From Blastocatellia bacterium (GTDB lineage: Bacteria; Acidobacteriota; Blastocatellia; UBA7656): DNA of 64,000 nucleotides. The stretch spans positions 9,631 through 73,630 of the forward strand of contig DATIFP010000007.1 of assembly GCA_035455165.1 (NCBI GenBank). Direction: 5' to 3'. Shown here in pieces: positions 17,623 to 40,782 of this stretch (its first letter is position 1; every line of letters begins with the position of its first letter). A program made the translations under genes and the position numbers. Under the pieces are notes generated by a model. It searched no databases, was not told where the DNA came from, and saw only the letters and a program-made list of their open reading frames with translations.

Positions 17623-17718
17623 AGGGTTCGTAGTCCCGCATTCATGCGGCATTGCTTGGTCAGCGATAAGATTCCGCCTGAAGGCGGTACTGCAGAGCGG
17701 TAAAAGGAGCGATAGGTT

Positions 17719-18738: not shown

Positions 18739-18802
18739 CGTCACGATTCAATCGATGGAGTGGCTTCACGTTCGGCGCGGGGGTTTAACCCTCGACATTC
18801 AC

Positions 18803-19186
18803 TCATTCTTCCGCGATGTAATCCGTCCCCTCGTCGCTCTCGAAGTAAGCCTTGTATAACGCCCGCGCATACTCGAGTTGATTGCTGGGGACGAGAACCC
18901 GGAGTTGTCCGCCGAAGACCAGATGAGGCTGCACGGAAAGCGAATGTTCACCGTGCATCACCGCCGCTACTCCATTCTGTTCGAGTGTCTGCTTGACCAG
19001 CATCGCCACCGGATAGGTAAGAGGGCGACATAACTCCACAAATTGAACTTCCCCCCTCTCGACGGCCTCTTTCGTCGTGACGGCCGTATCGTTGAGGGTC
19101 GCTGGAACCAGCTCAAACGCGCAATTGGGACACAGGCTTGAGCCCATATCGAATTCTGCTCCACAAATCGGACACAACATCAGCAT
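18803..19186 (-). CDS. DUF2007-like protein with N-terminal zinc ribbon
   Basis: 'CPICGAEF...CPNC' zinc ribbon. The C-terminal half resembles the DUF2007 putative signal-transducing domain. Confidence 0.55.
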   Translation of the reverse strand: MLMLCPICGAEFDMGSSLCPNCAFELVPATLNDTAVTTKEAVERGEVQFVELCRPLTYPVAMLVKQTLEQNGVAAVMHGEHSLSVQPHLVFGGQLRVLVPSNQLEYARALYKAYFESDEGTDYIAEE

Positions 19187-19544
19187 AGACGTCGAATCCT
19201 AGCACAGCGCTGGGCAGAATTGCCTCCTGGGCTTCACTTTGGACGCGGCGTTACCGCCGGCCCGGGAGTTGGCCCATCAGGATCGGGCATCGGCTCCGGA
19301 GGAAGCGGCATCGGGTCTTCAGGCGCCGGTATCGGATCCGGATCCAGATGCTCATGATCGAAATTCCTCATCGCATGGTCCTCCAGCGAGTGCGTCTCTC
19401 ACAGCGTCACGCCTCTCTCGCAATAACTCATCCATCCGAAGCCATTATAACTCGCCGGCCTCAGCATAGCCTTCCTCGCCGATTTGTTTTATATTCTCGA
19501 TCTCCAAGCCCAGTGGAGATGTCAGAAGGTACCCGGAGGAAGCC

Positions 19545-22500: not shown

Positions 22501-22859
22501 TTCACGCGGGCGGGCGAGTTTGTCTGGGAGGCCACGGTCAGATGCAAGGAATAGGGTGTCACTGGGAGATCTGGAATCTGCAGTCGGGCGGGATGACTCC
22601 GTTCGAGGCACTGCGCTCGGCGACTATCTACGGCGCGGAGGCGATCGGGCTCCAGAAGGACGTAGGGTCACTCGAAGCCGGAAAGCTTGCGGACTTGATC
22701 ATTCTGGACAAGAACCCGCTGACGGACATTCGCAACACGAACACGATCGTGTACGTGATGAAGAACGGCGAGATGTTCGAGGGTGAGACGTTGGATCAAA
22801 TCTGGCCGATTCAGAAGAAGCTAGAGAAGCAGTATTGGTGGGACCGCGACCCGCAGTGA
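19545..22859 (+). CDS. PD40/TolB-like beta-propeller fused to amidohydrolase domain (1104 aa), secreted
   Basis: GGAGG RBS. Signal peptide. Repeated 'SPDGKKIAF/SPDGKKLVY/SPDGKRVVF/SPDGRHIAY' PD40 blades. 'PGFVDVHAHMWPP' amidohydrolase metal-binding motif. Confidence 0.8.
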   Translation: MTGWKQVRSLLSLILIILVSLPLASLAQDPQKDDEKKDEAKEKKEEGLPLKTDKKIEFTTDEGTWMSLDVSSDGATILFDLLGDVYTVPTAGGEAKRIIGGLSFESQPKFSPDGKKIAFISDRSGAENLWLADADGSHPKALTKGRNQMFLSPSWTPDGQYVIASRSTDAIGTFALWMYHKDGGSGVQIGQPDPPPQPPGSGQPQPVRRNRFGGIASPDGRFIYYAQRNGAFNYNAQFPIWQIVRFDRETSETSTITNAQGSAMRPLLSPDGKKLVYATRFEGGTALRARDLETSEERWLINNVTRDDQESRGTRDLMPGYSFMPDGKSLIVPVNGKIQRVDFETGKSTIIPFTAKVEAEIAPRVYFENRVDDSAMVRARLIRWPAMSPDGKRVVFSSLNKLWISDLPAGSARRLTDSQVGEFMPAWSPDGRHIAYVTWSRDGGQINRVAVDGGRPEQLTRRAAYYSSPVYSPDGSKIVFVSGATDDQLYADLHYRDTDVFPDSSSDSQDSAESEIGGIGGSTGTDLRWIPATGGDSKLIAPAQGGRFPHFTNDPERVYLTTQQGLTSVRLDGYDRRTHFKVTGAAPGPFPPNADAIQLSPDGQKAFVSLQSKHYLVTIPKPGKETVTISITPNGPSAVPVKKMSVEGGDYLAWSPDGKWVTWSWGSKFYRQDVSADKPEMADLVVEAPRARPKGSVVLSGARIVTMNGSEVIERGDIVVTDNRVTAVGAKGKVAIPAGAKVIDVTGKTIIPGFVDVHAHMWPPRGVHQTQVWQYLANLAYGITTTRDPQSSTTDVFEYTDLVETGDILGPRVYTTGPGVFSGSGLDDKESTRNFIKRYKEAYHTTTLKEYVAGDRIVRQWVAMAIKEFGITSTTEGALDMKLDLTQMADGFSGNEHALPIHPLYKDVVQFVAKTGTFYTPTILVAYGAPWSENYWFENTDVHGNQKLRRFIPHALLDTMVKRRGQWFREDEYGHKAISKAAADIVHAGGRVCLGGHGQMQGIGCHWEIWNLQSGGMTPFEALRSATIYGAEAIGLQKDVGSLEAGKLADLIILDKNPLTDIRNTNTIVYVMKNGEMFEGETLDQIWPIQKKLEKQYWWDRDPQ

Positions 22860-27280: not shown

Positions 27281-29560
27281 CTAAGCGGCGCCCGCGTGCT
27301 GGCCCATGCCGCCCCGGTGATAGATCTCGCTTATCAATTCTCTCATCGCGCGGCCGTCGATCGGCTTGGACAACAAGTATCCCTGCACGTACTCACAGTT
27401 CAAACCGGTTAGCTTCAGGACCTGGTCTCGCGTCTCCACCCCTTCGGCAACCACGTCCATCCCGAGATTGCCGGCCAGCGTCAGGATCGTCTTAACGATC
27501 TCAGCATTCTTTGGCAGGTTGATCCTAGAAACAAAAGAACGGTCGATCTTCAGTGTGTCTATTGGAAACCTGTGCAAGTAGCTCAACGACGAGTATCCGG
27601 TCCCGAAATCGTCCAGCGACAATCTCACGCCAAGCGCTTTGATCCGCTTCAGCATCAGGGCCGCAACGTCGATGTTCTCGATGATCGCGCTCTCCGTGAT
27701 CTCGATCTTCAGGCTGCTAGCTTCCACGTCCGTCTCTTTGAGCGTCTGTGCGATGCGATCGATGAGGTCGGGCTGCGAGAACTGTTTGCCGGATAGATTC
27801 ACACTCATACTGAGAGGCGGGTCGGACGGAAACTGTACCTGCCACGCGCGAAGTTGCTCGCACGCTTCTCTGAGAACCCACTCGCTGATCGGGATGATCA
27901 ACCCGGTCTCTTCGGCAACCGGGATGAACTTCAACGGTGACACATAGCCGTGCTCGGGGTGCTCCCATCTGAGCAGCGCCTCGAAGCCGCTGATGCGCCA
28001 GTTCTCCAACGAGATTATCGGTTGATAGTGGACGCGAAACTCGTTGTGCGCGAGCGCGCGCCGGAGGCCCGTCTCCAATTGCGAGAGGGCCGCGTTGCGA
28101 GCGTGCATTCCCTTGTCGAACAACTCATAGGACCCGCGACCCATGTCCTTGGCTCGATACATGGCCGTGTCGGCGTTGCGAAGGATCTCTTCAGGCTCTT
28201 CGGACGCCGTCTGGTTGAGCGCGATCCCGATGCTTGCCGAGATAAACACTTCGTGCCCGCTCAGATTGAACGGAGTGGCGAGATGCTCGCGAATTCTCTC
28301 GGCCGCCTGCACCGCATCGTTCACCTGCCTGACCCGATCAAGGATGATTGCAAACTCATCGCCGCCCAGCCGCGCTACGATGTCACCAGGACGCAGACAC
28401 GACTCGAGCCTGCGCGCGGTCGCCACCAGCAACTGATCTCCGATCTGGTGACCCAGGCTGTCATTGACGACTTTGAAGCGGTCCAGGTCGAGGAACAGCA
28501 CTCCAAACGAATAGCCGTCACCGTGTTTCACCTGTCCCATCGCGCTCTTGAGCCTAGCCATGAACAAGCCCCGATTCGGCAGGCCTGTCAACGCATCGTG
28601 ATAAGCGCTATGCAACAGCGCCTTTTCAGCCTGCTTCTGGTCGGTGACGTCGGTAAGCGAGCCAGTCATCCGGTAGATGTACCGGTCCGAATCCATGACC
28701 GCCAGGCCGCGGCACAACATCCATCGGTAGGTCCCATCTTTCCTCCGCACACGGTGCTCGCTTTGAAACTGAGGCGTGATGCCGAGCAGATGGGACATAA
28801 TCTCTGCCTGCACACGTTCGATGTCTTGAGGATGGACACGCCTAAACCACTCGTCCGGCCGTTCCCTGAGTTCAGTCTCGGAGTATCCCAGCATAGCCTT
28901 CCACCGCGCGCAGAAGTGCATCTGGTTGGTTTCGAGATCCCACTCCCAAAGCCCGTCGGTTGCGCCTCTAAGGAGCATCGCGCAACGGCGTTCGCTTGCA
29001 GTGAGGGACTCGAATGCTCGTTCACGCTCGGCTCTGGCTTGCTCCAGTTCGAAGGTCTTGCGCTTAAGCTCGAGTCGAGCGATCACCGCTTGCCCCAATG
29101 AGCGGAGGGTTCGCGCTTGTGTTTCATTCAATTCTCGGGGCTTGTGATCGATGATCGAAAGCACTCCGAACGCAAAGCCTTCAGGCGCCCACAAAGGGAG
29201 ACCGGCGTAGAAGCAAACATCGGGAGTTTTGATCGACTCGTTCGCGACCGTTTGTTGATTCTCAGAATCGGTTGAAGTCACAGACAAGTCAGGTTCGTGA
29301 ATCGCGCGCGAGATCAGCGTGTTGGTGGCCGTATCGCCGACGGCTGAGCCCGTCAGCGAAATGTGCTGCAGCCGGCCGCCCTGTTGCAGGATGGTGAGAA
29401 GGGCTCCCGGAGCCGAGCACGACTCAGCAGCCAGACGAGTCAGGTCATCAATCACTGGATCGGGTTCGAGGAAATGGAGCGGGGCCCAGCCGGGTACCTG
29501 GGATGGCGATCCATCAGCGTTCAGTGACTTCGTCTCAGGTTGTAAAAGCTCAGTGCTCAA
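27281..29560 (-). CDS. GAF/PAS sensor diguanylate cyclase/phosphodiesterase (GGDEF-EAL)
   Basis: 'GGDEF' ('RLGGDEFAIIL') and 'EALLRW' EAL motifs with PAS and GAF regions. TTG start after a GGAGAGG RBS. Confidence 0.9.
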   Translation of the reverse strand: MSTELLQPETKSLNADGSPSQVPGWAPLHFLEPDPVIDDLTRLAAESCSAPGALLTILQQGGRLQHISLTGSAVGDTATNTLISRAIHEPDLSVTSTDSENQQTVANESIKTPDVCFYAGLPLWAPEGFAFGVLSIIDHKPRELNETQARTLRSLGQAVIARLELKRKTFELEQARAERERAFESLTASERRCAMLLRGATDGLWEWDLETNQMHFCARWKAMLGYSETELRERPDEWFRRVHPQDIERVQAEIMSHLLGITPQFQSEHRVRRKDGTYRWMLCRGLAVMDSDRYIYRMTGSLTDVTDQKQAEKALLHSAYHDALTGLPNRGLFMARLKSAMGQVKHGDGYSFGVLFLDLDRFKVVNDSLGHQIGDQLLVATARRLESCLRPGDIVARLGGDEFAIILDRVRQVNDAVQAAERIREHLATPFNLSGHEVFISASIGIALNQTASEEPEEILRNADTAMYRAKDMGRGSYELFDKGMHARNAALSQLETGLRRALAHNEFRVHYQPIISLENWRISGFEALLRWEHPEHGYVSPLKFIPVAEETGLIIPISEWVLREACEQLRAWQVQFPSDPPLSMSVNLSGKQFSQPDLIDRIAQTLKETDVEASSLKIEITESAIIENIDVAALMLKRIKALGVRLSLDDFGTGYSSLSYLHRFPIDTLKIDRSFVSRINLPKNAEIVKTILTLAGNLGMDVVAEGVETRDQVLKLTGLNCEYVQGYLLSKPIDGRAMRELISEIYHRGGMGQHAGAA

Positions 29561-29827
29561 AACCCTCTCCGAGATCTAGACAGAAGTGCGGGCGCATTGA
29601 TCCTTTTCCCACAGGAACAATGGCAAGAACGATGCCAGTTCGAGCAACCAGAAGTTTGGGCTAAATGCGGCTAAATCAGTCTATTGTGAATCTGGCAGAG
29701 CAGCGTGTCGCGGTTGGAATGACTGACTGAAGTGAACGGAGCTTTCAATATGAATGATTGGCGCTAAGGGCGTGCGCCCAACGCGTTCGAATTGATACGG
29801 ATTGGGATCACGTTCGCGGCGGACTTG

Positions 29828-31579
29828 TCAGGACGTCACTCCTTCGAGCTTGTCTTCGAGGCTGGCGGCGATCTCCTTCAACCGCTCGAGCACCGTGTGC
29901 TCCGCTGACCAGAACCCCCGTCCGGAAGCTTCGAGCAATCGCTCAACAAGCGTTCGGGCGGAGTGCGGATTGAGTGAGCGCAAGCGGTCCAGCATCTGCC
30001 CGTCAAGCACATAAGTCGCCGCCACTTCGTCGTACACCCAATCGTCAACCGCGTCAGCAGTCGCCGACCAGCCAAACGTGTTGGTGATATGATGCTCGAT
30101 CTCGGCCACTCCGCTGAAGCCGTGCCGCAGCATCCCTTCAAACCACTTTGGATTGAGCGTCTTGGTTCGAGTCTCGAGCCGAACAGTTTCTTCAAGTGTC
30201 CTGATCTTTGAGCCCGGCGAGGTCGAGTCCGACAGATAGATGCTGGGACGTCCGCCTCCCAGTTTTTCAACTGCCTTCGAAACCCCGCCCAGATACTCGA
30301 AATAATGATCGACGTCGGTTATCCCAACCTCGGTAGTGTCGATGTTCTGGTAAGTCACATCGACTCGCGAAAGCGCTCGCTCTAACAGCTTACGCGCCTC
30401 GCGGCCGTCGAAGCTGTTGCCGTGAGAGTCGCGGCCGTAGGCGAAACACTTTCGCGTTACGAACAACTCCCCCAGCTCGCCGCTGTTCTCCCACTGGCTA
30501 TCCAGCACCATGAAATTGACATTCGTTCCATAGTTGCCGGCAGCATTCGAGAACAAGCGGACTACCGCTTCGTCGAATTCACAATTTGTATCGTTGATTT
30601 GCTCCTCGACGTGACGCTTGAGGAAATTCATGTCGGCCGGCTCGTCGAGCGCAGCAACCCTTCTAACGGCTTTGTCGAGCAATGTCATCGTGGCCCCGAA
30701 CAGATCGCGGAAGATACCAGACACGGTCATCACCACGTCGATGCGCGGCCGTCCGAGCTCTTCGAGCGGGATCACCTCAATATCCGTCGCCCGATTCATT
30801 GAATCGCGACGCGGCCTTACGCCAAGAAGCCACAATACCTGGGCAACTGCCGCCCCTTCGGTTTTGATGTTGTCGATTCCCCACAGCACCATAGCGATAG
30901 TCTCGGGGTACCGTCCGGCTTCGCGGAGATGTCGCTCGACGAGAGCACCAGCGATTGGTTCGGCGCGCTGGACCGCGGTAATCGAAGGGATGGAGTACGG
31001 ATTAACCGCGTGTGTGTTGCGCCCGGTCGGAAGGATATCGGGATTTTGAACGACGTCCGCGCCGGGACCTGGTTCGACGTATTCGCCTCGAAGCGCGCTC
31101 ATCAACCCGTCCATCTCAGTGTCGGTTTCAAGCTGTCGGCAGATTTTCTCGAGAAGTCCAAACACCCTGAGCGATTCATCCCGAGAAACTGCGGCCCGCT
31201 CAGCCAGAAAGTCTGCCGCGCGTTCCCTTCCAGACTGGCCCTTATCCCCCACAAACAGCTCGACCCCCGCCCGAACAATTGCTTCAACGCGTTCTCGTTC
31301 GCGCAAACTCTGCTCAGATTGTGCGCTTGCTTTGAGCAAAGCGGCGTAATCGGAAAGACCGAGCCCGTCGGTGACCAGATTCGGGAGCGACCGAATGCCA
31401 AGCTCCGGTCTGTCAAACGAAGCGACCATCACCAACAAGTCGGCGAGCTCAGCATCTTTCGGCGCGCGTCCAAATATGTGCAGACCCGTGGGTATAAGTC
31501 GCTGCTCAATCTCCAGCACCTTTTCATAGAGGTCGAGCACGCGCCGCTCGCGTTCCAGGTTGTTCAGGTCATCGCTCAT
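29828..31579 (-). CDS. CobN/ChlH-type chelatase large-subunit homolog, C-terminal half only (583 aa)
   Basis: 'DILPTGRNTHAVNP' and the following region match the C-terminal half of CobN/Mg-chelatase H. No N-terminal half exists between this gene and the ChlD gene stop, which lies 12 nt upstream. Confidence 0.7.
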   Translation of the reverse strand: MSDDLNNLERERRVLDLYEKVLEIEQRLIPTGLHIFGRAPKDAELADLLVMVASFDRPELGIRSLPNLVTDGLGLSDYAALLKASAQSEQSLRERERVEAIVRAGVELFVGDKGQSGRERAADFLAERAAVSRDESLRVFGLLEKICRQLETDTEMDGLMSALRGEYVEPGPGADVVQNPDILPTGRNTHAVNPYSIPSITAVQRAEPIAGALVERHLREAGRYPETIAMVLWGIDNIKTEGAAVAQVLWLLGVRPRRDSMNRATDIEVIPLEELGRPRIDVVMTVSGIFRDLFGATMTLLDKAVRRVAALDEPADMNFLKRHVEEQINDTNCEFDEAVVRLFSNAAGNYGTNVNFMVLDSQWENSGELGELFVTRKCFAYGRDSHGNSFDGREARKLLERALSRVDVTYQNIDTTEVGITDVDHYFEYLGGVSKAVEKLGGGRPSIYLSDSTSPGSKIRTLEETVRLETRTKTLNPKWFEGMLRHGFSGVAEIEHHITNTFGWSATADAVDDWVYDEVAATYVLDGQMLDRLRSLNPHSARTLVERLLEASGRGFWSAEHTVLERLKEIAASLEDKLEGVTS

Positions 31580-31591
31580 TTCAAAAACCGC

Positions 31592-33550
31592 TTAACGGCG
31601 GCGCTCCTCCGCAACCGCAAAGATTGTTCTTTGGACCGCAGCCGGGTCGAACCGCGGCAAGTACAGATAGCGCGACCCCAGCATTTGCGCCAGCGCGCGT
31701 CCTTCTCCAGAGGAGACGAACCGCGATTTCGTATCAACCACAACAGACGCGATCTCTTCGGAGTGAAGCAAGCGGCCCAGTTGCCTTAGCTCGTCCTCTA
31801 TTACTGCCGCGCTTCGGTTCGTCGGTCCTTCGGTTAGACCGATGTTGGCCCTGCCATCGGTAAACAGCACAAGCATAGCCTGCGACAACCCTCTGAGCCT
31901 CGCCATTCGAGCCAGCTCGGTGGCTTTCAGGACCCCGGCAGAGATTGGAGTTCCTCCGCCCGCCGGCAGCGCATCCACAATACGCTTGGCCAGCTCGACG
32001 CTTCGAGTCGGGGCCAGCAACACCTCCGCCTGTTCGCCGCGAAAGCTTATCAACGCAACCTTGTCGCGATAGAGATAGGCTCGGCCGAGCAGTCGCGTGA
32101 GGGCGCCTTTTGCCTGTGCCATCCTGTTTACAGCCATACTGCCACTTGCATCCACTGCGAGGATGAACAGCATTCCGGATCGATGGTTCAGTTGTTTAAA
32201 CCTGAGATCGCCTGGTTCCACTCTCACTCGGCGATCAGAAGTCGTCTTCTGAAAACTCTCGGCAACCTGAGCTCGCGAGCGCCGCAGCGATTGACTAGGC
32301 GCTGCCGCTCGGAGCGTGGCGTCGACCGCGATCCTGGCACTGCGATTCCGGTGCATCACGCTGCGTACATACCGACCACGGTTATGCGAAGTCGCCCCGA
32401 GATGCTTACCCGTCCTTGCGCGCCGAAGTGACGCCTTCCACTTCAGCAAATCGTTTGGGATCGGAGCATCGATCGCTTGAATGTTCATGTCTTCGATTGA
32501 ACCGGGCGCGAAATCCCGTTCGTCGATTCGTTGCTCAATGTAGTCGTTCTCTTCCGAGTCCCCTGCTTGCGAAGGCTGCTGACGAGGTTGTTCGTGCTCC
32601 TCGGCGGGAAGCGTAGATGCTCGTGGCGCCAGCACGAACTGTATTGCGACAACTATGTCGTCTTGGTTGATGGCGGTTCGCCCCGACAGCGCCGCGTTTG
32701 CGCGAGCGGTCTTTAGCACAGCCAGGTCCGCGCTGTTTCCCTGCACGCCAAGTTTCATGGCGATCTGCGAAATCGCTCGAACCTGTTCTCTCGAGAAGTC
32801 GATCTGTGGCAGTCTCGCTCGCGCGTCCTGGATCAGACTCCTCAATTCGGCCGTTTCGAGCATAAAACCTTCAGTAAAGCCTGCCGGATCCTTTTCAAAG
32901 CGCAGTCGGCGCGACACGGCCTCTGCTCTTTCATCAGCCGTATATTGCTCAGTCTCATTTACGATTAAGTCAACGCGCTCGATCAGCAAAGAACGCGGCT
33001 CGCCCCCTGCCGGATCGAAGCATGCGAGCAAGGTGAAATTGGCTGAATGGATCGCGCTGACTCCCTCGCGTTCAAGAACCACGTGTCGACGGTCAACCGC
33101 GTGAGCTATGTGATTAGCAGTGCCTGAGTCCAGCAGGTTGATATCACCAACCAACAGCACGCCGCCATCGGCCTCAGCAAGCAAACCGCCGAGAACTTCG
33201 CGCCTTCCGGTAGAAACCGTCCGCTCGAGGTCAATCGCGCCCAGCAGACGATCGTCACTGACATTCAAGGGAACCTCAACCACTGGCATGTCGCGACCGA
33301 GATCCGATTCATTTGACTGCGGTCCATCGATGTGGCGATTTGGAAGGATTGCCGTGAAGGAGCGAAAAAGAGTTTGCGCATCGGAGCTTCGCTCCGATGC
33401 GATCAGCGCACCTTTGAGACCCGGCTCGACCGCAAGCAGCAACAGCGCGCGCTTGGCCGCGTGACGCCCCACGATTGCGGCGAACGGGTACGTGAATCGG
33501 CGGAGCTTGTGCCGAGCTGCGCTCTTCGTTTCGGTCCGTGCGTTCATCAA
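31592..33550 (-). CDS. Chelatase subunit D (ChlD/BchD family: degenerate AAA+ plus C-terminal VWA)
   Basis: N-terminal 'YPFAAIVG' AAA+-like region. C-terminal VWA ('LFILAVDASGSM' MIDAS-type). Confidence 0.85.
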   Translation of the reverse strand: MMNARTETKSAARHKLRRFTYPFAAIVGRHAAKRALLLLAVEPGLKGALIASERSSDAQTLFRSFTAILPNRHIDGPQSNESDLGRDMPVVEVPLNVSDDRLLGAIDLERTVSTGRREVLGGLLAEADGGVLLVGDINLLDSGTANHIAHAVDRRHVVLEREGVSAIHSANFTLLACFDPAGGEPRSLLIERVDLIVNETEQYTADERAEAVSRRLRFEKDPAGFTEGFMLETAELRSLIQDARARLPQIDFSREQVRAISQIAMKLGVQGNSADLAVLKTARANAALSGRTAINQDDIVVAIQFVLAPRASTLPAEEHEQPRQQPSQAGDSEENDYIEQRIDERDFAPGSIEDMNIQAIDAPIPNDLLKWKASLRRARTGKHLGATSHNRGRYVRSVMHRNRSARIAVDATLRAAAPSQSLRRSRAQVAESFQKTTSDRRVRVEPGDLRFKQLNHRSGMLFILAVDASGSMAVNRMAQAKGALTRLLGRAYLYRDKVALISFRGEQAEVLLAPTRSVELAKRIVDALPAGGGTPISAGVLKATELARMARLRGLSQAMLVLFTDGRANIGLTEGPTNRSAAVIEDELRQLGRLLHSEEIASVVVDTKSRFVSSGEGRALAQMLGSRYLYLPRFDPAAVQRTIFAVAEERRR

Positions 33551-33574
33551 CGGAAGGAACTCGACATCAGACGG

Positions 33575-34699
33575 TCATCTGACCGCCGACAGTCGCCTCC
33601 GGGCAATACGATTAGAGATCACCTCAGCGAGCGCAAGCTCGATGCGCTCACCGCAGTCGACCGCTTCAAACGGGTCTCTGCGCAGCCGATGTCGAAGCGA
33701 CATCACCGCCACTCTTGCGGCGTCGTCGAAGTTCGTCTTCGTCCGGCCTTCAAACGCGGCAAGCGCGCGAGCCGCTCGCGCAATAGTGAGCTCTCCGCGA
33801 TGCCCGTCCACCTTCAAGGAAACACAGAGTTCAGCAATTGCGACCAGCAGGCCGCGGTCTATGGAGCCTCGCGCTAGTAGCTTCCTAGCTCGCGAGACTC
33901 GTCTTCGGAGCTGCGTCTGCTCGCCTTCCCAGCGAGCCCGAAAACCATCGGGGTCATCATCGAAGCACTCGCACCGCTCGACGATCTCGACGCGTTGATC
34001 GAGATCAACGATTGTTTCGACCTGAGCGTAGATTCCGAAGCGGTCGAGCAGTTGAGGCCTCAACTCGCCCTCCTCGGGATTGCCGGAGCCGACCAGAACG
34101 AACCGGGCCGGATGGCTGACGGAGATCCCCTCGCGCTCGACGACGTTGCGCCCCGATGCCGCCGCGTCTAGCAACACGTCAACCAGGTGATCTTCGAGGA
34201 GATTAACCTCGTCGATATAGAGGAAGCCGCGGTTCGCGCGCGCGAGCAAGCCCGGCTCGAAGGCCTTCACCCCATCGACGAGCGCGCGCTCGATGTCCAG
34301 TGTGCCGCAGATTCGATCCTCGGTCGCTCCGAGCGGTAGATCCACGACCGGCACGGTGCCCCGATCAGTCGGGAGATCGGCGATGTGCCTCGAACAGTCC
34401 TCGCAAAAGTCTTCCGGCTTATCGGGATCACACCCATAGATGCAACCCCTGACTTTCCGTATTCCAGGCAACAGATCAGCCAACGCGCGGACGGCAGTAG
34501 ACTTGCCGGTGCCGCGATGGCCCATGATGATCACTCCACCGATGTTGGGATCGATAACCGACAGCAACAGGGCGAGCTTCATCTCCTGCTGGCCGACAAT
34601 TGCGGTGAACGGATAAGAGCTTCGAAGATGCCGGGTGCCCGCTGCTTTCTTTCGCTCAAAGGAATCGCGGCTTGTCCGTCTTGTTTTTTTACTGGGCAT
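33575..34699 (-). CDS. Chelatase ATPase subunit I (ChlI/BchI family)
   Basis: 'YPFTAIVGQQEMKLALLLSVIDPNIGGVIIMGHRGTGKST' is a near-canonical ChlI N-terminus. Cys-rich insert 'CIYGCDPDKPEDFCEDC'. ATG at 34699. Confidence 0.85.
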   Translation of the reverse strand: MPSKKTRRTSRDSFERKKAAGTRHLRSSYPFTAIVGQQEMKLALLLSVIDPNIGGVIIMGHRGTGKSTAVRALADLLPGIRKVRGCIYGCDPDKPEDFCEDCSRHIADLPTDRGTVPVVDLPLGATEDRICGTLDIERALVDGVKAFEPGLLARANRGFLYIDEVNLLEDHLVDVLLDAAASGRNVVEREGISVSHPARFVLVGSGNPEEGELRPQLLDRFGIYAQVETIVDLDQRVEIVERCECFDDDPDGFRARWEGEQTQLRRRVSRARKLLARGSIDRGLLVAIAELCVSLKVDGHRGELTIARAARALAAFEGRTKTNFDDAARVAVMSLRHRLRRDPFEAVDCGERIELALAEVISNRIARRRLSAVR

Positions 34700-34939
34700 G
34701 TCGAGGTTATGGATCGCGGCGGCCGGAACGAGTCTCGACCCTGTGCACCAATATAGAAGGTGAGTCTTACATCGGTCAACCAAGCACTCAATTCGCGCAT
34801 CGAAGGGCCTGGTCACACCTCTCGCAACGGCGCTCTGGCATCAACAGGAAGTGCGTGGACCTCATGATAGTGGTCCGGATGTGTTAGACTTTCTTGGCTG
34901 GGTTGAGAGAACCTGATCAAAGGAGCGGTTGGAGGCACT

Positions 34940-35446
34940 ATGAAGTACGCAGGTCTTTTGCTTACAACTTTCGCCCTGATGTTTGGCGCCGCTGCTGCGT
35001 CCCGGCAAACCCAGGAGTACACGGATCCTGCCAAGCATTACAAGCTAACTCTCTCCGGAGACTGGCGGGCAGTTTCTTACAACGACGCGGTCGGGCGTCC
35101 GAAGACCGAGTTCGTCTATAGAGACCGCAGCGAAGGTTTGCTCAAGATAACAAGAGAGCCTCTTACCGGGTCCCTCGCCGATGCGGTGCGCCAGGAAGAA
35201 GAGACCCTCAAGATTTATCGCGGCGGGTTCGAGGGATTGTCGAGTGAGCCGTTTGGAGGCGGCCAGCTTACCGGGATACGGTTGTCGTTCTACAGCACAG
35301 AGGGTGGCCGCAAGATGGCCAACACATTCTATTACCTTCAAGACAAGAACGCGATGTGGGCGCTTCGATTCACGGGCAAACGAGGAGCGCTGGATACAAC
35401 TCGAAACATCACCGATCAGATCGCTCGCAGCTTCCGCTCGCTTTAG
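34940..35446 (+). CDS. Hypothetical secreted protein
   Basis: RBS AAAGGAG. Signal peptide. No family. Confidence 0.5.
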   Translation: MKYAGLLLTTFALMFGAAAASRQTQEYTDPAKHYKLTLSGDWRAVSYNDAVGRPKTEFVYRDRSEGLLKITREPLTGSLADAVRQEEETLKIYRGGFEGLSSEPFGGGQLTGIRLSFYSTEGGRKMANTFYYLQDKNAMWALRFTGKRGALDTTRNITDQIARSFRSL

Positions 35447-35543
35447 CGATTAAGCGGGCGCACGGCAACCTTCCTAGCGGACTGAGGCTCGTGCCTCTGG
35501 GCTTGAAACGACCACCTACACTCCTCTCGCGCAAGGTGACGCC

Positions 35544-38393
35544 TCATTGGGTCTTTTCGGGAAACAGCGACACCCTTACGTATGTGTTCGTGTTGAGATA
35601 GGTCCTGGCCGCCTGCTGAATCATCGCCCCGTCTAGTTTCCTGTAATACTCGGGGAGGTTCCAAAGCGCGGCGGGATCGTCGCCATACTGGTATCTGAGC
35701 GTCAGCTGCGCGAGCAGATAGTTGTTCAGCTTGCTGCTGGTTTCGAAGTCGCGAAGCAGCGCTTCCTTCTCGTCAGTCACCTGCTTCTCGGTCGCGCCTT
35801 TCGTCTTGAGCTCCTCAATTTCTTCAAAGACTCGCTTGACCAGATCGTCGGTCCGCTGTGGGGCGCATCCGAACTGGATGGTGATGGAGTACATAGGTTT
35901 GGGAATGATCTGATAGCTGGCACCCGCGGTGATGCTGTAGGTGCCACCCAGGTCCTCTCGAATCTTCTCGAGCAGCCGGGTTTGAAGTACTTCTCCCATT
36001 GCCCGAATAGCCACGCGTTGAGTCTGATCGGGTTGAAACGGCCCGCTGAAGGCTATTGCCGTAAGGCTCTTCGGCTCGACGCCCTTCTCCACTCTTTTCT
36101 CGACGATACCCGGTGGGTTCCTTACGCCAACGTCTTTCCAGGTTTCTTTCCGATGTATCGAGGGCAACGATCCCAAATAACGTTCGACGAGCGGCTTCAT
36201 CGTCGCCAGATCAAAAGTGCCGACGAAGACAAACGTGAAGTCGCTCGCGTCGGCGAACCGATCCTTGTAGAACGCGAGCGATTTATCAAGGTTCCACTCA
36301 TCAACTGTCGCGGGGGTAGGAAACCTTCTCCTTAAATGATTCTGGAACCGAGTTGTCGTCAGGGCTTCGAAAAACGAAAACTCCGGGCTCGCCTTCTGGT
36401 TAGCCAGCAGGGTCTTTTGCTGCGTTGCCTGCACGTTGAACGCAGTCGCGTCGGCTCTGGGCTGAGTGAACCTCAGGTAAATGAGCTGGAACATCGTCTC
36501 CAGGTCCTTACGTGAGCTGCTGCCGTTCAATCCTTCTTCGAGCTCCCCGATGAATGGACTGGCCGCCGCGACCTTCCCTGTCAGAATCTTCCTGAGATCG
36601 ATGGCGTTGAACTTGCCCAGACCTCCAGCGGTTATGAGCTGTGTCGCCGAGCTGGCTGTTATGTAGTCCTGATCGCTGGCGAGCGAGGTGCCCCCGGGGC
36701 TCGTGGCCCGAAACAGGATTTCATCAGCTTTGAATGTCGTCGGCTTCAGGACGACCTTCACCCCGTTGGACAGTTCCCACTCAGTGATGCCGACGGTGTC
36801 TTTGGTTGTAGTCCTGGTGACTGTTCCGGGCGTGGGAAGCGGGTCGAGCAGCGCCGCCGTGCCGACCATGTCGACGTAAGGCTTCAGGTCCTTCGCCGGC
36901 GCGGCCTTGATCACCGCCGCCAGCTTGGCTTCGTCCGGGACCACCAGGCCGCTCTTCTCCGGAGCGGTGATGATCACCAGCCGGTTCTGGTCGGAATACC
37001 ACTCCCTGGCGAGTTTATTGATCTCGGCAAGGGTAATCTCGGGCAGGAACCGTTTGTGCAGCGCGTACTCATCGTCGGGGCTTGGGAGAGTCTCGTTCTC
37101 AAGGAAATTTCGGATGTATTCAGCGGCCCGGCTTGCAGAGACGGTGGTGTCCTTTTCGGTGGCCATGCGCTCGTAGTTCCTCAGGACATTCTGTTTTTGG
37201 CGGTCGAGCTCCGATCCAGTGAACCCGAAGCGCGCCACGCGTTCTGCCTCGCCGAGCAACGCGTCCAGCCCCCGCTCGATGCCATCCTCCTTGACCATTG
37301 CATTGAGCGATGCAGCGTCCTTTGAGCGTCCCAGAAAACTCCCGCGTCCCGCGCCCGCAAAAAGGAACGGCGCGTCGGCCTTCTGCGCCACTTCAGAAAA
37401 CCGCGCGTTGAGCATGCCGGAGAACAGGCGGTCGACGATCTTCTGTCGGTACACGCCGACTGACCCCTGCTGGCGTGCGGGCAGCAGGTTAGTGACGGCG
37501 ACGCTCGTGGTCGTCATTTCCTTGTCGGACGTGATGGCGTAGAGCGTGCCGGGATGATCCGGGACCTCGTAGTTGACTCTGGGCCTCGGCGAGGTGGAGG
37601 CCGGAATTGAGGCGAAGTGCGTGTTGATTAGTTTCTCAATCGCCGACTTGTCGAAGTCGCCAACCGCGACTACGGCCATCAGATCGGGCCGGTACCAGTC
37701 GGCATAGAACTTCTTCAAGCGTTCCGGCTTGCCGTTCTGAATTATTTCCGGCTTCCCGATGGGAATCCGCTCAGCATAACGCGAACCTTTGAACAGGATC
37801 GGAAATATCTTGTCACGCTGACGCGCGCCCGCGCCTCGCCCGAGTCGCCACTCCTCCATTACGACGCCACGCTCTTTCTCGATTTCGGTTGGGTCGAATG
37901 AGACGTTGTGCGCCCAGTCTTCGAGAATCAACATCGCGCGATCGAGCGTTTCGAGCTTATCGGTCGGCACCTGGAGCATGTAGACCGTCTCATCAAAGCT
38001 CGTGTAAGCGTTCAGGTCGGCGCCGAAACGCATGCCTAGCGACTCGATGAAATGGACGAGTTCCTGTTTAGGGAAGTGCTGAGTGCCGTTGAAAGCCATG
38101 TGCTCAACGAGGTGCGCCATACCCTGCTGGTCGTCGTCTTCAAGGATCGAGCCCGCCCTGACCACGAGACGCAGTTCCGCCCGCTTCTCAGGTTTCTTGT
38201 TCGCCCGGACGTAGTAGCGAAGTCCATTGGCAAACTTGCCGATCGTGATATCGGGGTCGACGGGCATCTGTTGCGCAAGGGCAGGAGTCTGGACCGCAAT
38301 TGTGGCGGCCTGCTGCCGCGCAACTCCCAGGCACGTCGCAGCGAGGATGGCTGCCGTCAAAAACAATAAGCGTGTGCGGGTTCGAACACTCAT
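35544..38393 (-). CDS. M16 family zinc metallopeptidase (two-unit insulinase/pitrilysin-like), secreted
   Basis: Inverted zinc motif 'HLVEHMAFNGT' (HxxEH) plus a downstream Glu. 949 aa with signal peptide. Confidence 0.9.
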   Translation of the reverse strand: MSVRTRTRLLFLTAAILAATCLGVARQQAATIAVQTPALAQQMPVDPDITIGKFANGLRYYVRANKKPEKRAELRLVVRAGSILEDDDQQGMAHLVEHMAFNGTQHFPKQELVHFIESLGMRFGADLNAYTSFDETVYMLQVPTDKLETLDRAMLILEDWAHNVSFDPTEIEKERGVVMEEWRLGRGAGARQRDKIFPILFKGSRYAERIPIGKPEIIQNGKPERLKKFYADWYRPDLMAVVAVGDFDKSAIEKLINTHFASIPASTSPRPRVNYEVPDHPGTLYAITSDKEMTTTSVAVTNLLPARQQGSVGVYRQKIVDRLFSGMLNARFSEVAQKADAPFLFAGAGRGSFLGRSKDAASLNAMVKEDGIERGLDALLGEAERVARFGFTGSELDRQKQNVLRNYERMATEKDTTVSASRAAEYIRNFLENETLPSPDDEYALHKRFLPEITLAEINKLAREWYSDQNRLVIITAPEKSGLVVPDEAKLAAVIKAAPAKDLKPYVDMVGTAALLDPLPTPGTVTRTTTKDTVGITEWELSNGVKVVLKPTTFKADEILFRATSPGGTSLASDQDYITASSATQLITAGGLGKFNAIDLRKILTGKVAAASPFIGELEEGLNGSSSRKDLETMFQLIYLRFTQPRADATAFNVQATQQKTLLANQKASPEFSFFEALTTTRFQNHLRRRFPTPATVDEWNLDKSLAFYKDRFADASDFTFVFVGTFDLATMKPLVERYLGSLPSIHRKETWKDVGVRNPPGIVEKRVEKGVEPKSLTAIAFSGPFQPDQTQRVAIRAMGEVLQTRLLEKIREDLGGTYSITAGASYQIIPKPMYSITIQFGCAPQRTDDLVKRVFEEIEELKTKGATEKQVTDEKEALLRDFETSSKLNNYLLAQLTLRYQYGDDPAALWNLPEYYRKLDGAMIQQAARTYLNTNTYVRVSLFPEKTQ

Positions 38394-38606
38394 GGCTTAC
38401 CTCCCGGAGAAGTTCGACATTGCGCCGGCTTTTGGTGATTCCTCTTAGATGCCGGTGCCGCCGAAGGTTTACTTTCCATGAACCGATTTCACGGCGCGAG
38501 CGAAGGCTTCGATTATATGTCCGGCGTCGGCGCCGGTCAAGCAATCAGCCATTGCCGTGACATCTATTACTATGTTGACTATTACGGCTGCAAGTGTCGA
38601 CCGTTC

Positions 38607-38634
38607 GCTTGCACATCCCGCTTCCTCGGTTATA
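38607..38634 (+). promoter_or_regulatory. Sigma70-like promoter candidate for EF-G paralog (TTGCAC-16-TATAAG)
   Basis: -35 at 38607-38612, -10 at 38629-38634, about 43 nt upstream of the ATG. Confidence 0.35.
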
Positions 38635-38676
38635 AGCTCATTCAACTTCAGCAACCAACGAAAGGAGACCGCTTGT

Positions 38677-40782
38677 ATGAAGGTCTATGGCACCAAGGAG
38701 ATCAGAAACATTGGCATTGTAGGTCACGGCCACGCGGGCAAAACGTCGCTGGTTTCGGCGATGCTGTTTGACGCGGGGGCCACAACCCGATTGGGTCGCG
38801 TTGATGAAGGGACGACGGTAACCGACTACGATGAGGACGAGATCGCGCGAAAACTGACCATCATAAGTGCGCTCGCATACTGCGAGTGGAACGGGACGAA
38901 GATAAACATACTCGATACCCCTGGTTTCGCCGCATTCATACTCGATGCCAAGGCCGCGTTGCGAGCGTGTGATTCAGCGCTCGTAGTAGTCGATGCGGTC
39001 AGCGGAGTTGAGGTGCAGACAGAGAAGGCCTGGAGCTACGCCGACGAGTTCGGCATTCCTCGATTGATTGTTGTCTCAAAAATGGACCGCGAGCGCGCGG
39101 ACTTCGATGCGGCGATAGCCAGCATCACCGAGGCGTTCGGACGTTCAGCGGTGCCGATTCAAATTCCTATTGGGCGCGAGAGCGGGTTCCAGGGAGTGAT
39201 AGATCTGATTCATATGCGTGCTTATATATACGAGCCGGACGGCAGCGGCAAGATGACCGAGGGGGAGGTGCCCGCCGATTTGAGACCAGCCGCTGAAACG
39301 GCCCGCGAGAAGATAATCGACGTCGTCGCCGAGAGCTCCGAAGAATTGATGGAGAAATATTTCGCCGAGGGAACTTTAAGCGATGAAGATCTGATCCCCG
39401 GCATAAAGGCGGCAATCACCGAGCGAAGAATGTTTCCGATCCTGGTAGCGTCCGGCATTCCAAACGTCGGAATTCAGCCGCTGCTGAACTCGATTGTGGA
39501 ACTTGCCCCGGCCCCCGACGAGCTTGGGGCGGCGAAGGGCCATCCGACCCCTGAGAGCGACGAGACCATCGAGCGCGAAGTGAAAGACATCGCGCCCTTC
39601 TCCGCTCTCGTATTCAAGACGGTCGCCGATCCATTCGCAGGACGGATCAGCGTGTTCAAACTGTATTCGGGAACCGTCAAATCCGACGCAAACGTCTACA
39701 ACATTTCGAAGAGCACCAACGAGCGACTTGGCCCGCTTCACGTGATGCAGGGCAAGTCACTCGAGAAAGTTCAGGAGGCTCACGCCGGCGACATCATCGC
39801 GGTAACCAAGCTGAAAGAGACCACGACCGGCGACACGTTCTGCGACAAGGGCTCGCCGATAGCTTATGACTCCGTCCACTTCCCGACGCCGGCGATAGCT
39901 TTCGCTATCACGCCGAAGTCACGCAATGATGAAGACAAACTCTCGCAGGCCATCCACAAGATGCTCGAAGAGGATTCAGCGCTCCGGTTTAACCGTGAAC
40001 CTCAAACGAAAGAGTTTCTGCTGTCAGGCTCGGGGCAAACTCACGTAGAGGTTGCGGTGAACAAATTGAAGCGCCGCTACGGCGTCGAGGTCGAGCTTCA
40101 CCCTCCAAAAGTGGCTTATCTCGAGACGTTCAGGGGCCGGGCCGAAATCGTCGGCCGTCATAAAAAACAGACCGGCGGCCGTGGGCAGTTTGCCGAAGCT
40201 ACCTGCATTTTCGAGGGGCTGCCGCGCGGCGGCGGATTCGAGTTCGTCGACAAGATCTTCGGCGGTGCGATCCCTCAGAATTGGAGACCCGCCGTAGAAA
40301 AAGGTATCAAAGACGCGGCCGCGCGCGGGGCCATCGCCGGCTATCCGCTGGTTGATTTCAAAGTCGAGCTGATCGACGGCAAGTTCCATCCGGTGGACTC
40401 CGATGACCTCTCGTTTCAACTCGCGGGCCGCAAGGCCTTTCGCATGGCGATAGAGAAGGTCAAGCCGGTGCTGCTCGAGCCGGTGATGAATGTCGAGATC
40501 ACCGCGCCTCAAGAAGTCTCCGGCGACATCCTGGGAGACATCAACTCGCGACGGGGACGAGTTCAGGGGATGGACACAAAAGGAAACCAGGGCGTCGTAA
40601 AGGCGCAAGTGCCTTTGTCGGAGATGCTGTCTTATCAATCGACCCTGAACTCAATCACTGGCGCTCGCGGCTCGTACACGATGGAGCTAGACCACTATGA
40701 TGAAGTACCGGCTTTGATCGCACAGAAGATCATCCACAAGGCCCAAGAGGAAGGCCGCATCCGACCGACGGAAGAGGAATGA
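38677..40782 (+). CDS. Elongation factor G family protein (standalone EF-G paralog)
   Basis: AAAGGAG RBS. 'IGIVGHGHAGKTSL' G1, 'DTPGF' G3, and EF-G domains II-V. Not in an rpsL-rpsG-fusA-tuf context. Confidence 0.85.
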   Translation: MKVYGTKEIRNIGIVGHGHAGKTSLVSAMLFDAGATTRLGRVDEGTTVTDYDEDEIARKLTIISALAYCEWNGTKINILDTPGFAAFILDAKAALRACDSALVVVDAVSGVEVQTEKAWSYADEFGIPRLIVVSKMDRERADFDAAIASITEAFGRSAVPIQIPIGRESGFQGVIDLIHMRAYIYEPDGSGKMTEGEVPADLRPAAETAREKIIDVVAESSEELMEKYFAEGTLSDEDLIPGIKAAITERRMFPILVASGIPNVGIQPLLNSIVELAPAPDELGAAKGHPTPESDETIEREVKDIAPFSALVFKTVADPFAGRISVFKLYSGTVKSDANVYNISKSTNERLGPLHVMQGKSLEKVQEAHAGDIIAVTKLKETTTGDTFCDKGSPIAYDSVHFPTPAIAFAITPKSRNDEDKLSQAIHKMLEEDSALRFNREPQTKEFLLSGSGQTHVEVAVNKLKRRYGVEVELHPPKVAYLETFRGRAEIVGRHKKQTGGRGQFAEATCIFEGLPRGGGFEFVDKIFGGAIPQNWRPAVEKGIKDAAARGAIAGYPLVDFKVELIDGKFHPVDSDDLSFQLAGRKAFRMAIEKVKPVLLEPVMNVEITAPQEVSGDILGDINSRRGRVQGMDTKGNQGVVKAQVPLSEMLSYQSTLNSITGARGSYTMELDHYDEVPALIAQKIIHKAQEEGRIRPTEEE

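Follow-up and report, generated by a model that had tools for sequence, protein, structure and literature searches.

A probable two-piece BchH-type chelatase in Acidobacteriota, with the halves of the large subunit encoded by separate genes

Introduction

Class I tetrapyrrole chelatases are thought to act like pliers, with domains III and V of the large subunit forming jaws that are driven through the D subunit. To our knowledge, there is as yet no structure of a magnesium chelatase holoenzyme. [quoted passage not shown] In ChlH, H621 and E660, on the domain III side, are two of the three catalytic residues (PMC13297055). C-terminal fragments of ChlH and CobN crystallise alone (6YS9, 5EWU and 9FPC), a precedent for autonomous folding of domains V-VI, the fragments being engineered rather than natural.

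The CobN-superfamily fold also acts outside chlorophyll and B12 synthesis. The haem dechelatase HmuS of Bacteroidota (PDB 9D26), the product of a gene in a haem-uptake operon, consists of one membrane-anchored chain that contains a Met-rich insertion (PMC12583661); the fold can thus serve other tetrapyrrole or metal chemistry. Among class II enzymes, CbiX-S is a precedent for half of a bilobal chelatase existing as its own polypeptide, with a fold unrelated to that of class I large subunits. Nothing relevant came from a literature search for split bchH or cobN genes and for chelatases of Blastocatellia or Pyrinomonadaceae.

Here we describe a locus from a Blastocatellia bacterium, contained in a 64-kb stretch of DNA (the window), in which genes for BchI-like and BchD-like motor subunits are followed by a gene for the C-terminal half of a large subunit only.

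Results

Motor subunit genes and their surroundings

The preliminary description of this DNA had placed an I-type gene, a D-type gene and a gene for a 583-aa protein, hereafter Hc, in this order on the minus strand, and the ORFs are as it described them (Table 1). The distance of 12 nt that it gave between the bchD stop codon (31592-31594) and the Hc ATG (31579) is also correct.

Table 1. Coordinates of the chelatase genes and adjoining features in the window
Feature	Position	Strand	Remarks
bchI-like AAA+ motor subunit	33575..34699	-	374 aa from ATG; ORF open to GTG at 34816
bchD-like bridging subunit	31592..33550	-	TIGR02031, AAA_lid_2, VWA_2, MIDAS motif
Hc, 583-aa C-terminal piece of split BchH-type large subunit	29828..31579	-	
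Hc-GGDEF/EAL intergenic junction	29561..29827	.	Predicted site of the Hn gene in the ancestral arrangement
PAS-GGDEF-EAL gene	27281-29560		Flank beyond Hc
Sigma-70-like promoter match (TTGACC, 18 nt, TATATT)	34750..34779	-	~50 nt upstream of bchI ATG

Both motor subunits pass the cut-offs of their NCBIfam equivalogs. The bchI product, which contains Walker A (GHRGTGKST) and Walker B (FLYIDEVNLL) motifs, scored 518 bits against BchI-ChlI model TIGR02030 (cut-off 467), and its orthologues in related genomes are 338-381 aa long. The bchD product, scoring 552 bits against BchD-ChlD model TIGR02031 (cut-off 499.6), combines a degenerate AAA+ domain with an acidic/proline linker and a VWA (integrin-I) domain whose MIDAS motif reads DASGS (VDASGSM in the translation); its Pfam matches are those listed in Table 1. 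Wherever a related locus is long enough for gene order to be read, the order is I-D-Hc, and this context suggests that Hc works with the adjoining BchI and BchD. A read-through fusion of bchD and Hc was considered, as the two genes share a frame in the window (TAA plus four codons between them), but the corresponding genes of one related locus (L003) overlap out of frame, and the idea was dropped as a chance coincidence of frames. The sigma-70-like match upstream of bchI is a weak promoter lead, since the region contains two promoter-like sites where 1.6 are expected from shuffled sequences.

The flank on the bchI side holds a 168-aa ORF with no assigned family and an M16 peptidase gene. A scan of the other 26 large ORFs of the window revealed no bch, chl or cob gene, in line with the earlier statement that such genes are lacking nearby, and the window gave no match to any Rfam family, the cobalamin riboswitch included. 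That no N-terminal half is encoded nearby was also borne out: in a tblastn search of the whole window with full-length Chloracidobacterium BchH, only residues 683-1275 were matched, the N-terminal half being absent even at E <= 10, and no remnant of it was found at the junction between Hc and the GGDEF/EAL gene. A separate Logan assembly (L001) has a sequence identical to that of the window.

Hc is a conserved C-terminal half of a BchH-type subunit

Three comparisons agreed with the earlier view that the 583-aa protein corresponds to a C-terminal half only. Hc matches positions 552-1087 of the 1090-position Pfam CobN-Mg_chel profile, positions 698-1271 of 1271 in the NCBIfam BchH model TIGR02025, and residues 757-1350 of the Synechocystis ChlH chain (4ZHJ), a structural check that had been proposed at the outset; it thus covers only the C-terminal 45% of BchH/ChlH. 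Its TIGR02025 score of 698 bits lies under the cut-off of 829 only because half of the protein is missing. Against the CobN model TIGR02257, Hc scored 381 bits (cut-off 822), and it is 42-53% identical to the C-terminal halves of phototroph BchH/ChlH proteins. The original "CobN/ChlH" label can be refined: the protein is clearly of BchH/ChlH type and not of CobN type.

Hc consists of a helical N-terminal region (aa 1-163), a domain-V alpha/beta sandwich and a helical C-terminal domain. Judging from the ChlH alignment and published domain descriptions rather than from coordinates, residues 1-163 probably correspond to domain IV. The equivalent of the catalytic histidine H1174 is present in DHYFEYLGG (motif TDVDHYFEYLGG), and ILPTGRN occupies aa 182-188. 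An AF2 model of the monomer (pLDDT 79.5) gave a query TM-score of 0.85 against ChlH; its lowest-confidence parts are the invariant motifs LIPTGLH and ILPTGRN.

The suggestion that short genes beside I and D might recur in related genomes was borne out by more than 120 clusters of orthologues, 579-605 aa in length with identities of 73-84% (60-84% over the whole range). The protein is present in about 43 species-representative genomes, nearly all titled Acidobacteriota. The dN/dS of Hc is 0.06-0.08, with synonymous change saturated.

The N-terminal half is a separate gene downstream of Hc in relatives

With residues 1-694 of Chloracidobacterium BchH as the query, all 120 matches listed were full-length or partial BchH proteins of phototrophs. 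The acidobacterial N-terminal half was found by tblastn on flanks fetched in the genome scan. It is a separate gene, Hn, of about 715 codons. Outside the window's subclade, all 31 of the 31 species representatives that could be tested carry it directly after Hc or no more than 1.5 kb downstream, giving the order I-D-Hc-Hn; about 36 metagenome contigs show the same adjacency. At 8 of 14 inspected junctions the Hc stop and Hn start codons overlap (NTGA), which suggests that the pair was translationally coupled in the ancestral state. The end of Hn (...EEKAxxLNL) and the start of Hc (MSDDLNN...LIPTGLH) are contiguous in Chloracidobacterium BchH. Thus, both pieces are separate, intact and conserved ORFs that abut exactly in an unsplit homologue, and together they constitute a natural split gene. 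Neither the swapped order nor the BchH type had been recognised in the preliminary description.

Hn keeps VGTHGAxEFMPGKQ...NVYVYSVNNPSEG, which contains the equivalents of H621, E625, Y651, Y653 and E660; those of H621, E625 and E660 were found in Hn proteins P0443, P0421 and P0400, and also in P0492. The catalytic residues of Hn would thus be supplied in trans to the window ORF, which has the H1174 equivalent alone. Head domain PF11965, not present in the window ORF, is matched by P0443 (E = 3e-18), and PF11965 together with PF02514 occurs in 120 of the 120 Hn homologues among the matches listed. The Hn-Hc pair has evolved under purifying selection since the pieces separated (dN/dS 0.06-0.12).

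In a relative with 78% identity, both genes are on one contig; the product obtained by joining its Hn and Hc in silico covered TIGR02025 from 1 to 1271 of 1271 in a single stretch with 1433 bits (cut-off 829), scored 1496 bits against NF009140 (cut-off 1300) and also passed NF009942. Conversely, this product remained under the cut-offs of all six CobN models (TIGR02257, 607 bits; cut-off 822). We rejected an intein or trans-splicing, as the rejoined pair aligns to the model in one stretch with nothing inserted between the two pieces.

In two close relatives of the window Hn lies far from Hc

Related loci fall into two arrangements, I-D-Hc-Hn (clade A) and I-D-Hc-GGDEF/EAL (clade B), the latter including the window. 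A neighbour-joining tree, for which no support values were calculated, groups the split family as one monophyletic lineage within the BchH/ChlH radiation and nests the window clade inside the clade with adjacent genes. Two close relatives have contigs long enough to carry both pieces. On an 878,808-bp ENA contig, I-D-Hc is located at ~777 kb and Hn at ~517 kb, 260 kb apart, and on a 695,560-bp JGI contig (Ga0207699_10000001) they are located at ~52 kb and ~635 kb, ~580 kb apart. In clade B, Hn adjoins yifB/comM and lies behind a GAF-domain gene; eight more stand-alone Hn loci beside yifB were identified (L089-L094, L097 and L174). These stand-alone genes are intact and have lost none of the catalytic motifs, with 69-82% identity within the clade.

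An intact 744-aa Hn (P0492; HSB11770.1) is titled "MAG TPA: Blastocatellia bacterium"; the accession of window Hc is HSB08123.1. P0492 is 73% identical to a proven clade-B Hn, and its closest listed relative with known context, P0449, is a stand-alone gene. From the closeness of the accessions and from these relatives, P0492 probably belongs to the window's own metagenome-assembled genome, and we infer that this genome carries Hn. Among the readings initially put forward, it is that of an N-terminal half encoded elsewhere that agrees with these findings.

Gene context of the split chelatase

The window and the 10-kb flanks around related loci (about 50 loci for the chlorophyll genes) contained neither cob genes nor bchM, bchE, acsF, bchLNB or any further (bacterio)chlorophyll gene. 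A magnesium-protoporphyrin product would therefore have no obvious use. The lineages that carry the split gene, represented by metagenome-assembled genomes, are not known to us as phototrophic, and Chloracidobacterium, with its normal, full-length BchH (P0277), is the only phototrophic acidobacterial genus that we know of. A close full-length relative, P0278, was discarded as a model for the split genes; it is encoded in a true photosynthesis cluster with two bchH paralogues, bchM, bchE and pucC.

The GAF-domain proteins beside Hn and the GGDEF-EAL protein beside Hc showed no phytochrome or bilin-specific domains, and a small conserved upstream ORF had no family match. Neighbours in related genomes include a metal-type MerR regulator and a secreted His-rich protein, and in one subclade DtxR-like and FeoB-like genes, assigned by reading their sequences only, are near. 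The MerR and FeoB neighbours are set apart from the operon and are not universal.

Discussion

Comparison with known chelatases

The locus most resembles magnesium chelatase (Synechocystis ChlH, 4ZHJ/6YSG; Chloracidobacterium BchH): I and D pass the equivalog cut-offs, and Hn plus Hc span the BchH model end to end with the catalytic residues and PF11965 kept. It differs in that H is made up of two polypeptides from two genes with the C-terminal piece first, unlinked by hundreds of kb in the window clade, and in that the hosts are not known phototrophs and have no other (bacterio)chlorophyll genes nearby. With CobN-CobS-CobT, and with CobN that works with ChlI/ChlD-type motors, it shares the superfamily and the six-domain plan, and our view of motor docking is borrowed from the CobSTN structure. 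However, CobN scores are about half the BchH score and stay under cut-off even after rejoining, CobN lacks the PF11965 head domain that Hn has, and the window holds neither cob genes nor a B12 riboswitch. The similarity to HmuS is lower (26-28% identity; 239 bits versus 525 for ChlH; query TM-score 0.69 versus 0.85), and the membrane anchor, Met-rich insertion and hmu-like gene context were not found at the locus. Unlike CbiX-S, which homodimerises, the present system has two different halves, both of which are kept.

Proposed origin and mechanism

The 583-aa gene is conserved and looks like a working one, and we consider it likely that Hc and Hn form the BchH/ChlH-type large subunit of a two-piece class I tetrapyrrole chelatase. 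In an ancestor of the acidobacterial family, full-length bchH was cut about 35 residues past the catalytic NNPSE motif, and the pieces became separate cistrons in swapped order, bchI-bchD-Hc-Hn, presumably through a tandem duplication after which the outer halves were lost. The window's subclade later underwent a rearrangement, with its breakpoint between Hc and Hn, that placed I-D-Hc next to the GGDEF-EAL gene and Hn next to yifB/comM at a distance of hundreds of kb.

In the assembled enzyme, the head, neck and domain-III jaw, along with the equivalents of H621, E625 and E660, would come from Hn; Hc would add the helical region, the jaw of domain V, the helical domain at the C terminus and the equivalent of H1174. 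Since Hc appears to hold counterparts of CobN domains IV, V and VI, which touch CobT in cobalt chelatase, its predicted docking partner is the bchD product, through the VWA/MIDAS domain of that subunit, which the ATPase ring of the bchI product would drive. Both the heterodimer and this docking geometry are inferred. By family membership, the reaction would be insertion of Mg2+ into protoporphyrin IX, but the actual metal or substrate of the Hc-Hn complex may differ.

Alternative explanations

Two readings would deny that a split gene exists as a working unit, and both have very little in their favour. That sequencing or assembly errors split a normal bchH is the least probable of all; such cases do occur, and an unrelated short homologue, P0130 (670 aa), is an ordinary frameshifted full-length gene with an adjacent 546-aa N-terminal part in normal order. 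A frameshift, which had been named as something that might restore a full CobN, cannot produce a C-half followed by an N-half, and the arrangement recurs in more than 60 independent assemblies (NCBI, ENA, JGI and Logan), closed chromosomes included, besides the identity of the window in L001. Decay of a chelatase operon, with the 583-aa ORF as a bchH remnant devoid of its 5' half, was among the readings first proposed; it would agree with the lack of chlorophyll and cobalamin genes nearby and with coverage of only half of the family model, yet we regard it as highly improbable. Length is conserved in all those orthologue clusters, dN/dS is low, the catalytic histidine is retained, the I and D genes are whole and have their motifs, the other half is likewise conserved, and the range of identities excludes a single recent clone.

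Hc might instead stand alone with BchI and BchD in the window clade, either forming a homodimer in which a cleft with two jaws is restored, on the model of CbiX-S, or serving a purpose other than chelation, the distant Hn being functionally unrelated. The homodimer was our leading idea until the Hn genes turned up. In its favour, Hc is co-operonic with I and D and Hn is unlinked, C-terminal fragments of ChlH/CobN fold on their own, and Hc has counterparts of the CobT-contacting domains. We nevertheless find it improbable, as we do the "minimal half-CobN" proposed at the start: two of the three catalytic residues sit in Hn (PMC13297055), every testable related genome keeps the N-half gene, Hn of clade B is intact and conserved, the ancestral state appears to be a coupled Hc-Hn pair, and the low confidence of LIPTGLH and ILPTGRN in the monomer model is as expected if a partner is needed. 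A different question is whether the two-piece architecture serves another chemistry, such as handling of Co, Zn or Ni, use of another tetrapyrrole, or HmuS-like dechelation for metal or haem homeostasis. This is possible, though we regard it as less likely than not. The carriers belong to lineages not known for bacteriochlorophyll, neighbours such as MerR, the His-rich protein and, in one subclade, DtxR-like and FeoB-like genes are suggestive of metals, and the superfamily includes a dechelatase (PDB 9D26; PMC12583661). On the other side, all three subunits score as magnesium-chelatase equivalogs, and H once rejoined reaches none of the CobN cut-offs. In addition, Hn contains PF11965, a head domain specific to BchH, the match to HmuS is far poorer than that to ChlH, and the MerR and FeoB neighbours are neither within the operon nor universal.

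Implications

The swapped order with often overlapping stop and start codons represents a clean fission with permutation, after which the pieces were physically unlinked in one subclade and neither was lost. In terms of the pliers, the cut falls just past jaw III, and the presumed motor-docking piece stays with the motor genes. The two genes are a ready-made two-piece system for asking which half binds D, which binds the porphyrin and how the cleft closes.

The NCBI pipeline names both pieces "cobaltochelatase subunit CobN". This label and "magnesium chelatase subunit H" hide the fact that the proteins are halves of one subunit; as the labels give no sign of it, pathway inventories would score these genomes wrongly.

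As a speculative reading, apparently non-phototrophic Acidobacteriota (Blastocatellia, Pyrinomonadaceae and relatives) may keep a complete BchHID-type chelatase under strong selection, with a two-piece heterodimer as its catalytic subunit, for a use other than bacteriochlorophyll synthesis, be it another metal or tetrapyrrole, a non-photosynthetic magnesium porphyrin or metal removal; in clade B, the unlinked, separately controlled Hn might then gate a pre-assembled I-D-Hc module. A strongly conserved BchHID-type enzyme outside the known chlorophyll makers raises the question of what magnesium-type chelatases do beyond phototrophy.

Three-gene chelatase locus of the window

An ORF check confirmed the coordinates at which the preliminary description had placed three minus-strand ORFs (table below). 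The bchI-like product (I) has intact Walker A and Walker B motifs, and in the bchD-like product (D) an acidic/proline linker is present, and the VWA domain carries the MIDAS motif DASGS. The third product, Hc, covers only positions 552-1087 of the 1090 positions of the Pfam CobN-Mg_chel profile and only positions 698-1271 of the 1271 positions of the BchH model, and it aligns to chain residues 757-1350 of Synechocystis ChlH (PDB 4ZHJ). The match to a C-terminal half alone, noticed earlier, was thus seen again with each of the three references. Of the earlier "CobN/ChlH" label, the BchH-like part stands (698 bits), while the score with CobN is much weaker (381 bits). When full-length Chloracidobacterium BchH was used as a tblastn query, its C-terminal part alone matched, and the N-terminal part is absent from the window, as had been stated for the flanks. 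No bch/chl/cob genes were found among the 26 other large ORFs scanned and no Rfam family matched the window, in agreement with the reported lack of such neighbours. The bchD stop and the Hc start share a reading frame, with TAA and four codons between them (window positions 31580-31594); this is probably due to chance, since in the related locus L003 these genes are in different frames, with an overlap of 8 nt.

Features of the window and of related loci (L numbers)
Feature	Locus	Position	Strand	Remarks
bchI-like	window	33575-34699 (374 aa), or to 34816 (413 aa)	minus	TIGR02030, 518 bits (cut-off 467)
bchD-like	window	31592-33550	minus	652 aa; TIGR02031, 552 bits (cut-off 499.6)
Hc	window	29828-31579	minus	583 aa; starts 12 nt past the bchD-like stop
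Genes upstream of bchI	window	34700-40782		unknown 168-aa ORF, M16 peptidase, EF-G paralogue
NfeD / Band-7 pair and adjoining protein	window	17137-22859	plus	adjoining protein 1104 aa, PD40 (Tricorn-like) + amidohydrolase; group syntenic with L003 and L004
TPR + CHAT-domain protein	window	42854-46201	minus	1115 aa
PrkA / DUF444 (YeaH) / SpoVR (YcgB)	window	54041-60348	plus	conserved stress-response gene set
Zinc-ribbon ORF	window	56249-57712		487 aa, between PrkA and DUF444
ORF between bchD and Hc	L002	9050-9979		309 aa; signal-peptide-like start; no Pfam match
ORF between bchI and bchD	L005	7401-7949		182 aa; no Pfam match
yifB/comM after Hn	L088	13524-15068
yifB/comM after Hn	L017	14386-16062
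yifB/comM after Hn	L089, L091, L174

The H subunit is encoded in two pieces

The lack of an N-terminal half had been attributed to a decaying operon, to a minimal chelatase with a natural half-CobN, or to a split gene. Decay is not borne out by the conservation of Hc: its orthologues form more than 120 clusters at the 90% identity level, with lengths of 579-605 aa and 73-84% identity to the window Hc. Compared with other members of its clade, the window gene has a dN/dS of 0.06-0.08, and synonymous change is near saturation. Hc is, therefore, no remnant. To look for the missing half, 10-kb flanks of Hc loci were searched by tblastn with the N-terminal half of BchH. An intact gene for this half, Hn, was present on the same strand downstream of Hc in 31 out of 31 testable species (Hc 60-74% identical to that of the window; clade A), directly adjoining Hc in most and at no more than 1.5 kb in all. 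In two relatives from the window's own subclade (clade B) Hn lies elsewhere on the same contig. The split-gene reading is therefore the one upheld, and a minimal half-CobN is not supported.

Counted from the conserved MKITVLYVG start, Hn is ca. 705-725 aa long in most species. The clade A order, I-D-Hc-Hn, was also found on ca. 36 further metagenome contigs; since it places the C-terminal piece first, neither a frameshift nor read-through could rejoin the pieces. Of 14 junctions inspected, 8 had an NTGA overlap of the Hc stop and Hn start, the usual signature of translational coupling.

The Hn end (...IEEKAxxLNL) and the Hc start (MSDDLNN...LIPTGLH) are contiguous in unsplit BchH. When Hn and Hc of one contig were joined in silico, the product aligned to TIGR02025 in a single stretch (positions 1-1271 of 1271, 1433 bits), passed all three Mg-chelatase-H models and failed all CobN models. 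As nothing is missing or added at the junction, an intein is ruled out. Hn also carries the BchH-specific head domain PF11965. In a neighbour-joining tree (no support values) the split family is monophyletic inside the BchH/ChlH radiation, with the window's clade nested and derived.

A search of 1.8 billion representatives showed that the Hc family is a tight group, in which even the most distant full-length member has 67% identity; beyond it, the nearest sequences are full-length BchH/ChlH of phototrophs (no more than 53% identity), and CobN is at 32-37%. When each species was scanned through a single genome, Hc was found in ca. 43 representatives, several of them closed chromosomes, and most carriers are titled Blastocatellia, Pyrinomonadaceae, other Acidobacteriota MAGs or Candidatus Versatilivoraceae. 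Four records titled "uncultured Clostridia bacterium" (L008, L015, L027 and L049; CAZJQQ01, CAZOOE01, CAZTUB01 and CAZPQE01) contain the acidobacterial I-D-Hc locus (68-79% identical) together with the same neighbours, and the organism names in these titles look wrong.

Relocation of Hn in clade B

No Hn was found within 10 kb of Hc, or up to the contig end where this was closer, in L001-L005, L008-L015, L042, L044 and L055, whose Hc is 77-100% identical to that of the window. In the window and most of these loci the same PAS-GGDEF-EAL gene is located downstream of Hc. A homologue search with clade A Hn retrieved a large Hn family that included P0443, which shares an 878,808-bp ENA contig with the clade B Hc P0054; Hn is at ca. 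517 kb and I-D-Hc at ca. 777 kb. A metagenome scan with P0443 revealed a second such contig, Ga0207699_10000001 (695,560 bp), with Hn at ca. 635 kb and I-D-Hc-GGDEF/EAL at ca. 52 kb.

The stand-alone Hn genes share 69-82% identity with P0443 and are located just upstream of yifB/comM wherever the contig is long enough, with a GAF-domain gene before Hn in longer loci. In clade A, yifB is downstream of Hn in seven loci. This gene, coding for a "Mg chelatase-like" AAA+ protein, is 93-96% identical across the window's clade. Being next to Hn in both the adjacent and the stand-alone state, it is a marker of the ancestral gene order, which, since yifB follows Hn in clade A and in stand-alone clade B loci, would have been I-D-Hc-Hn-yifB; a rearrangement in the window's clade would then have broken the operon between Hc and Hn.

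The conserved neighbours in relatives, found upstream of bchI in L002, L003, L005, L008, L010 and L012, are genes for a CHAD protein, a 525-aa membrane molybdopterin oxidoreductase, a metal-type MerR regulator and a secreted His-rich protein of ca. 180 aa. The window genes on this side are different, hence a second rearrangement there. The ORFs inside the L002 and L005 operons are lineage-specific insertions.

The window Hc has the NCBI protein accession HSB08123.1. P0492 (HSB11770.1), an intact Hn of 744 aa, likewise comes from a "MAG TPA: Blastocatellia bacterium" and is 73% identical to the proven clade B Hn; its nearest homologue with genomic context among the matches listed, P0449 (79.5%), is a stand-alone Hn. 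Since the protein accessions of one assembly normally form a contiguous block, P0492 and the window Hc probably belong to the same MAG.

Proposed architecture of the split chelatase

In ChlH, residues H621 and E660 are essential; E625, Y651 and Y653 line the channel on the domain III side and H1174 is on the domain V side (PMC13297055, PMC12583661). Hn keeps VGTHGAxEFMPGKQ...NVYVYSVNNPSEG, i.e., every N-side residue, and Hc keeps DHYFEYLGG. In the cobalt chelatase holoenzyme structure, CobN, whose domains III-VI are compared to pliers, is held by the BchD counterpart CobT, with the largest contact surface formed by domain VI, near the MIDAS, and smaller ones by domains IV and V (bioRxiv 10.64898/2026.07.21.739949). 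The ChlD integrin-I domain binds the ChlH body (PMC6604950).

The AF2 model of Hc (pLDDT 79.5; query TM-score 0.85 with ChlH) consists of a helical region (aa 1-163), an alpha/beta sandwich and a C-terminal helical domain. Judging from its alignment to ChlH residues ca. 737-925, the helical region would be domain IV, so that Hc would comprise domains IV, V and VI and Hn domains I, II and III. The I-D-Hc operon would then encode the motor, the whole motor-docking module and one jaw, with Hn contributing the porphyrin-handling head, the neck and the second jaw. No Hc motifs are more invariant than LIPTGLH and ILPTGRN. They are the parts of the monomer model with the lowest confidence, which would fit segments ordered only against Hn. 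We infer the Hn-Hc assembly, the docking, the metal and the substrate.

Chemistry and relation to known chelatases

By family membership, I-D-Hc-Hn is a putative Mg-protoporphyrin chelatase, because all three subunits, H as the joined Hn-Hc pair, reach equivalog thresholds and Hn has PF11965. Chloracidobacterium, whose BchH is a normal single gene, is the only genus in Acidobacteriota known to be phototrophic, and the hosts of the split chelatase are not known to be so. No other pigment or cobalamin genes were found near any locus copy examined, and the conserved neighbours, which are outside the operon, hint at metal homeostasis. For these reasons our confidence in the chemistry is low; that in the two-piece architecture is high. 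Several conserved genes follow Hn in L031-L034 and L047 (titled Terriglobia or Versatilivoraceae), where sequence reading suggests a 640-aa metallo-beta-lactamase-fold protein, an OsmC-like protein, a DtxR-like regulator and a FeoB-like GTPase; this set may point to iron or metal metabolism.

The closest known system is BchHID/ChlHID, from which the present one differs in having the H subunit in two pieces with swapped gene order, unlinked in one clade, and in having hosts that are not known to be phototrophic. Membership in CobN was tested and failed, and HmuS is far more distant than BchH/ChlH. We found no description of a split bchH or cobN in the literature, and in public annotations both pieces go under the names of ordinary CobN or BchH proteins. 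These apparently non-phototrophic bacteria offer a natural example of a Mg-type class I chelatase in two pieces.
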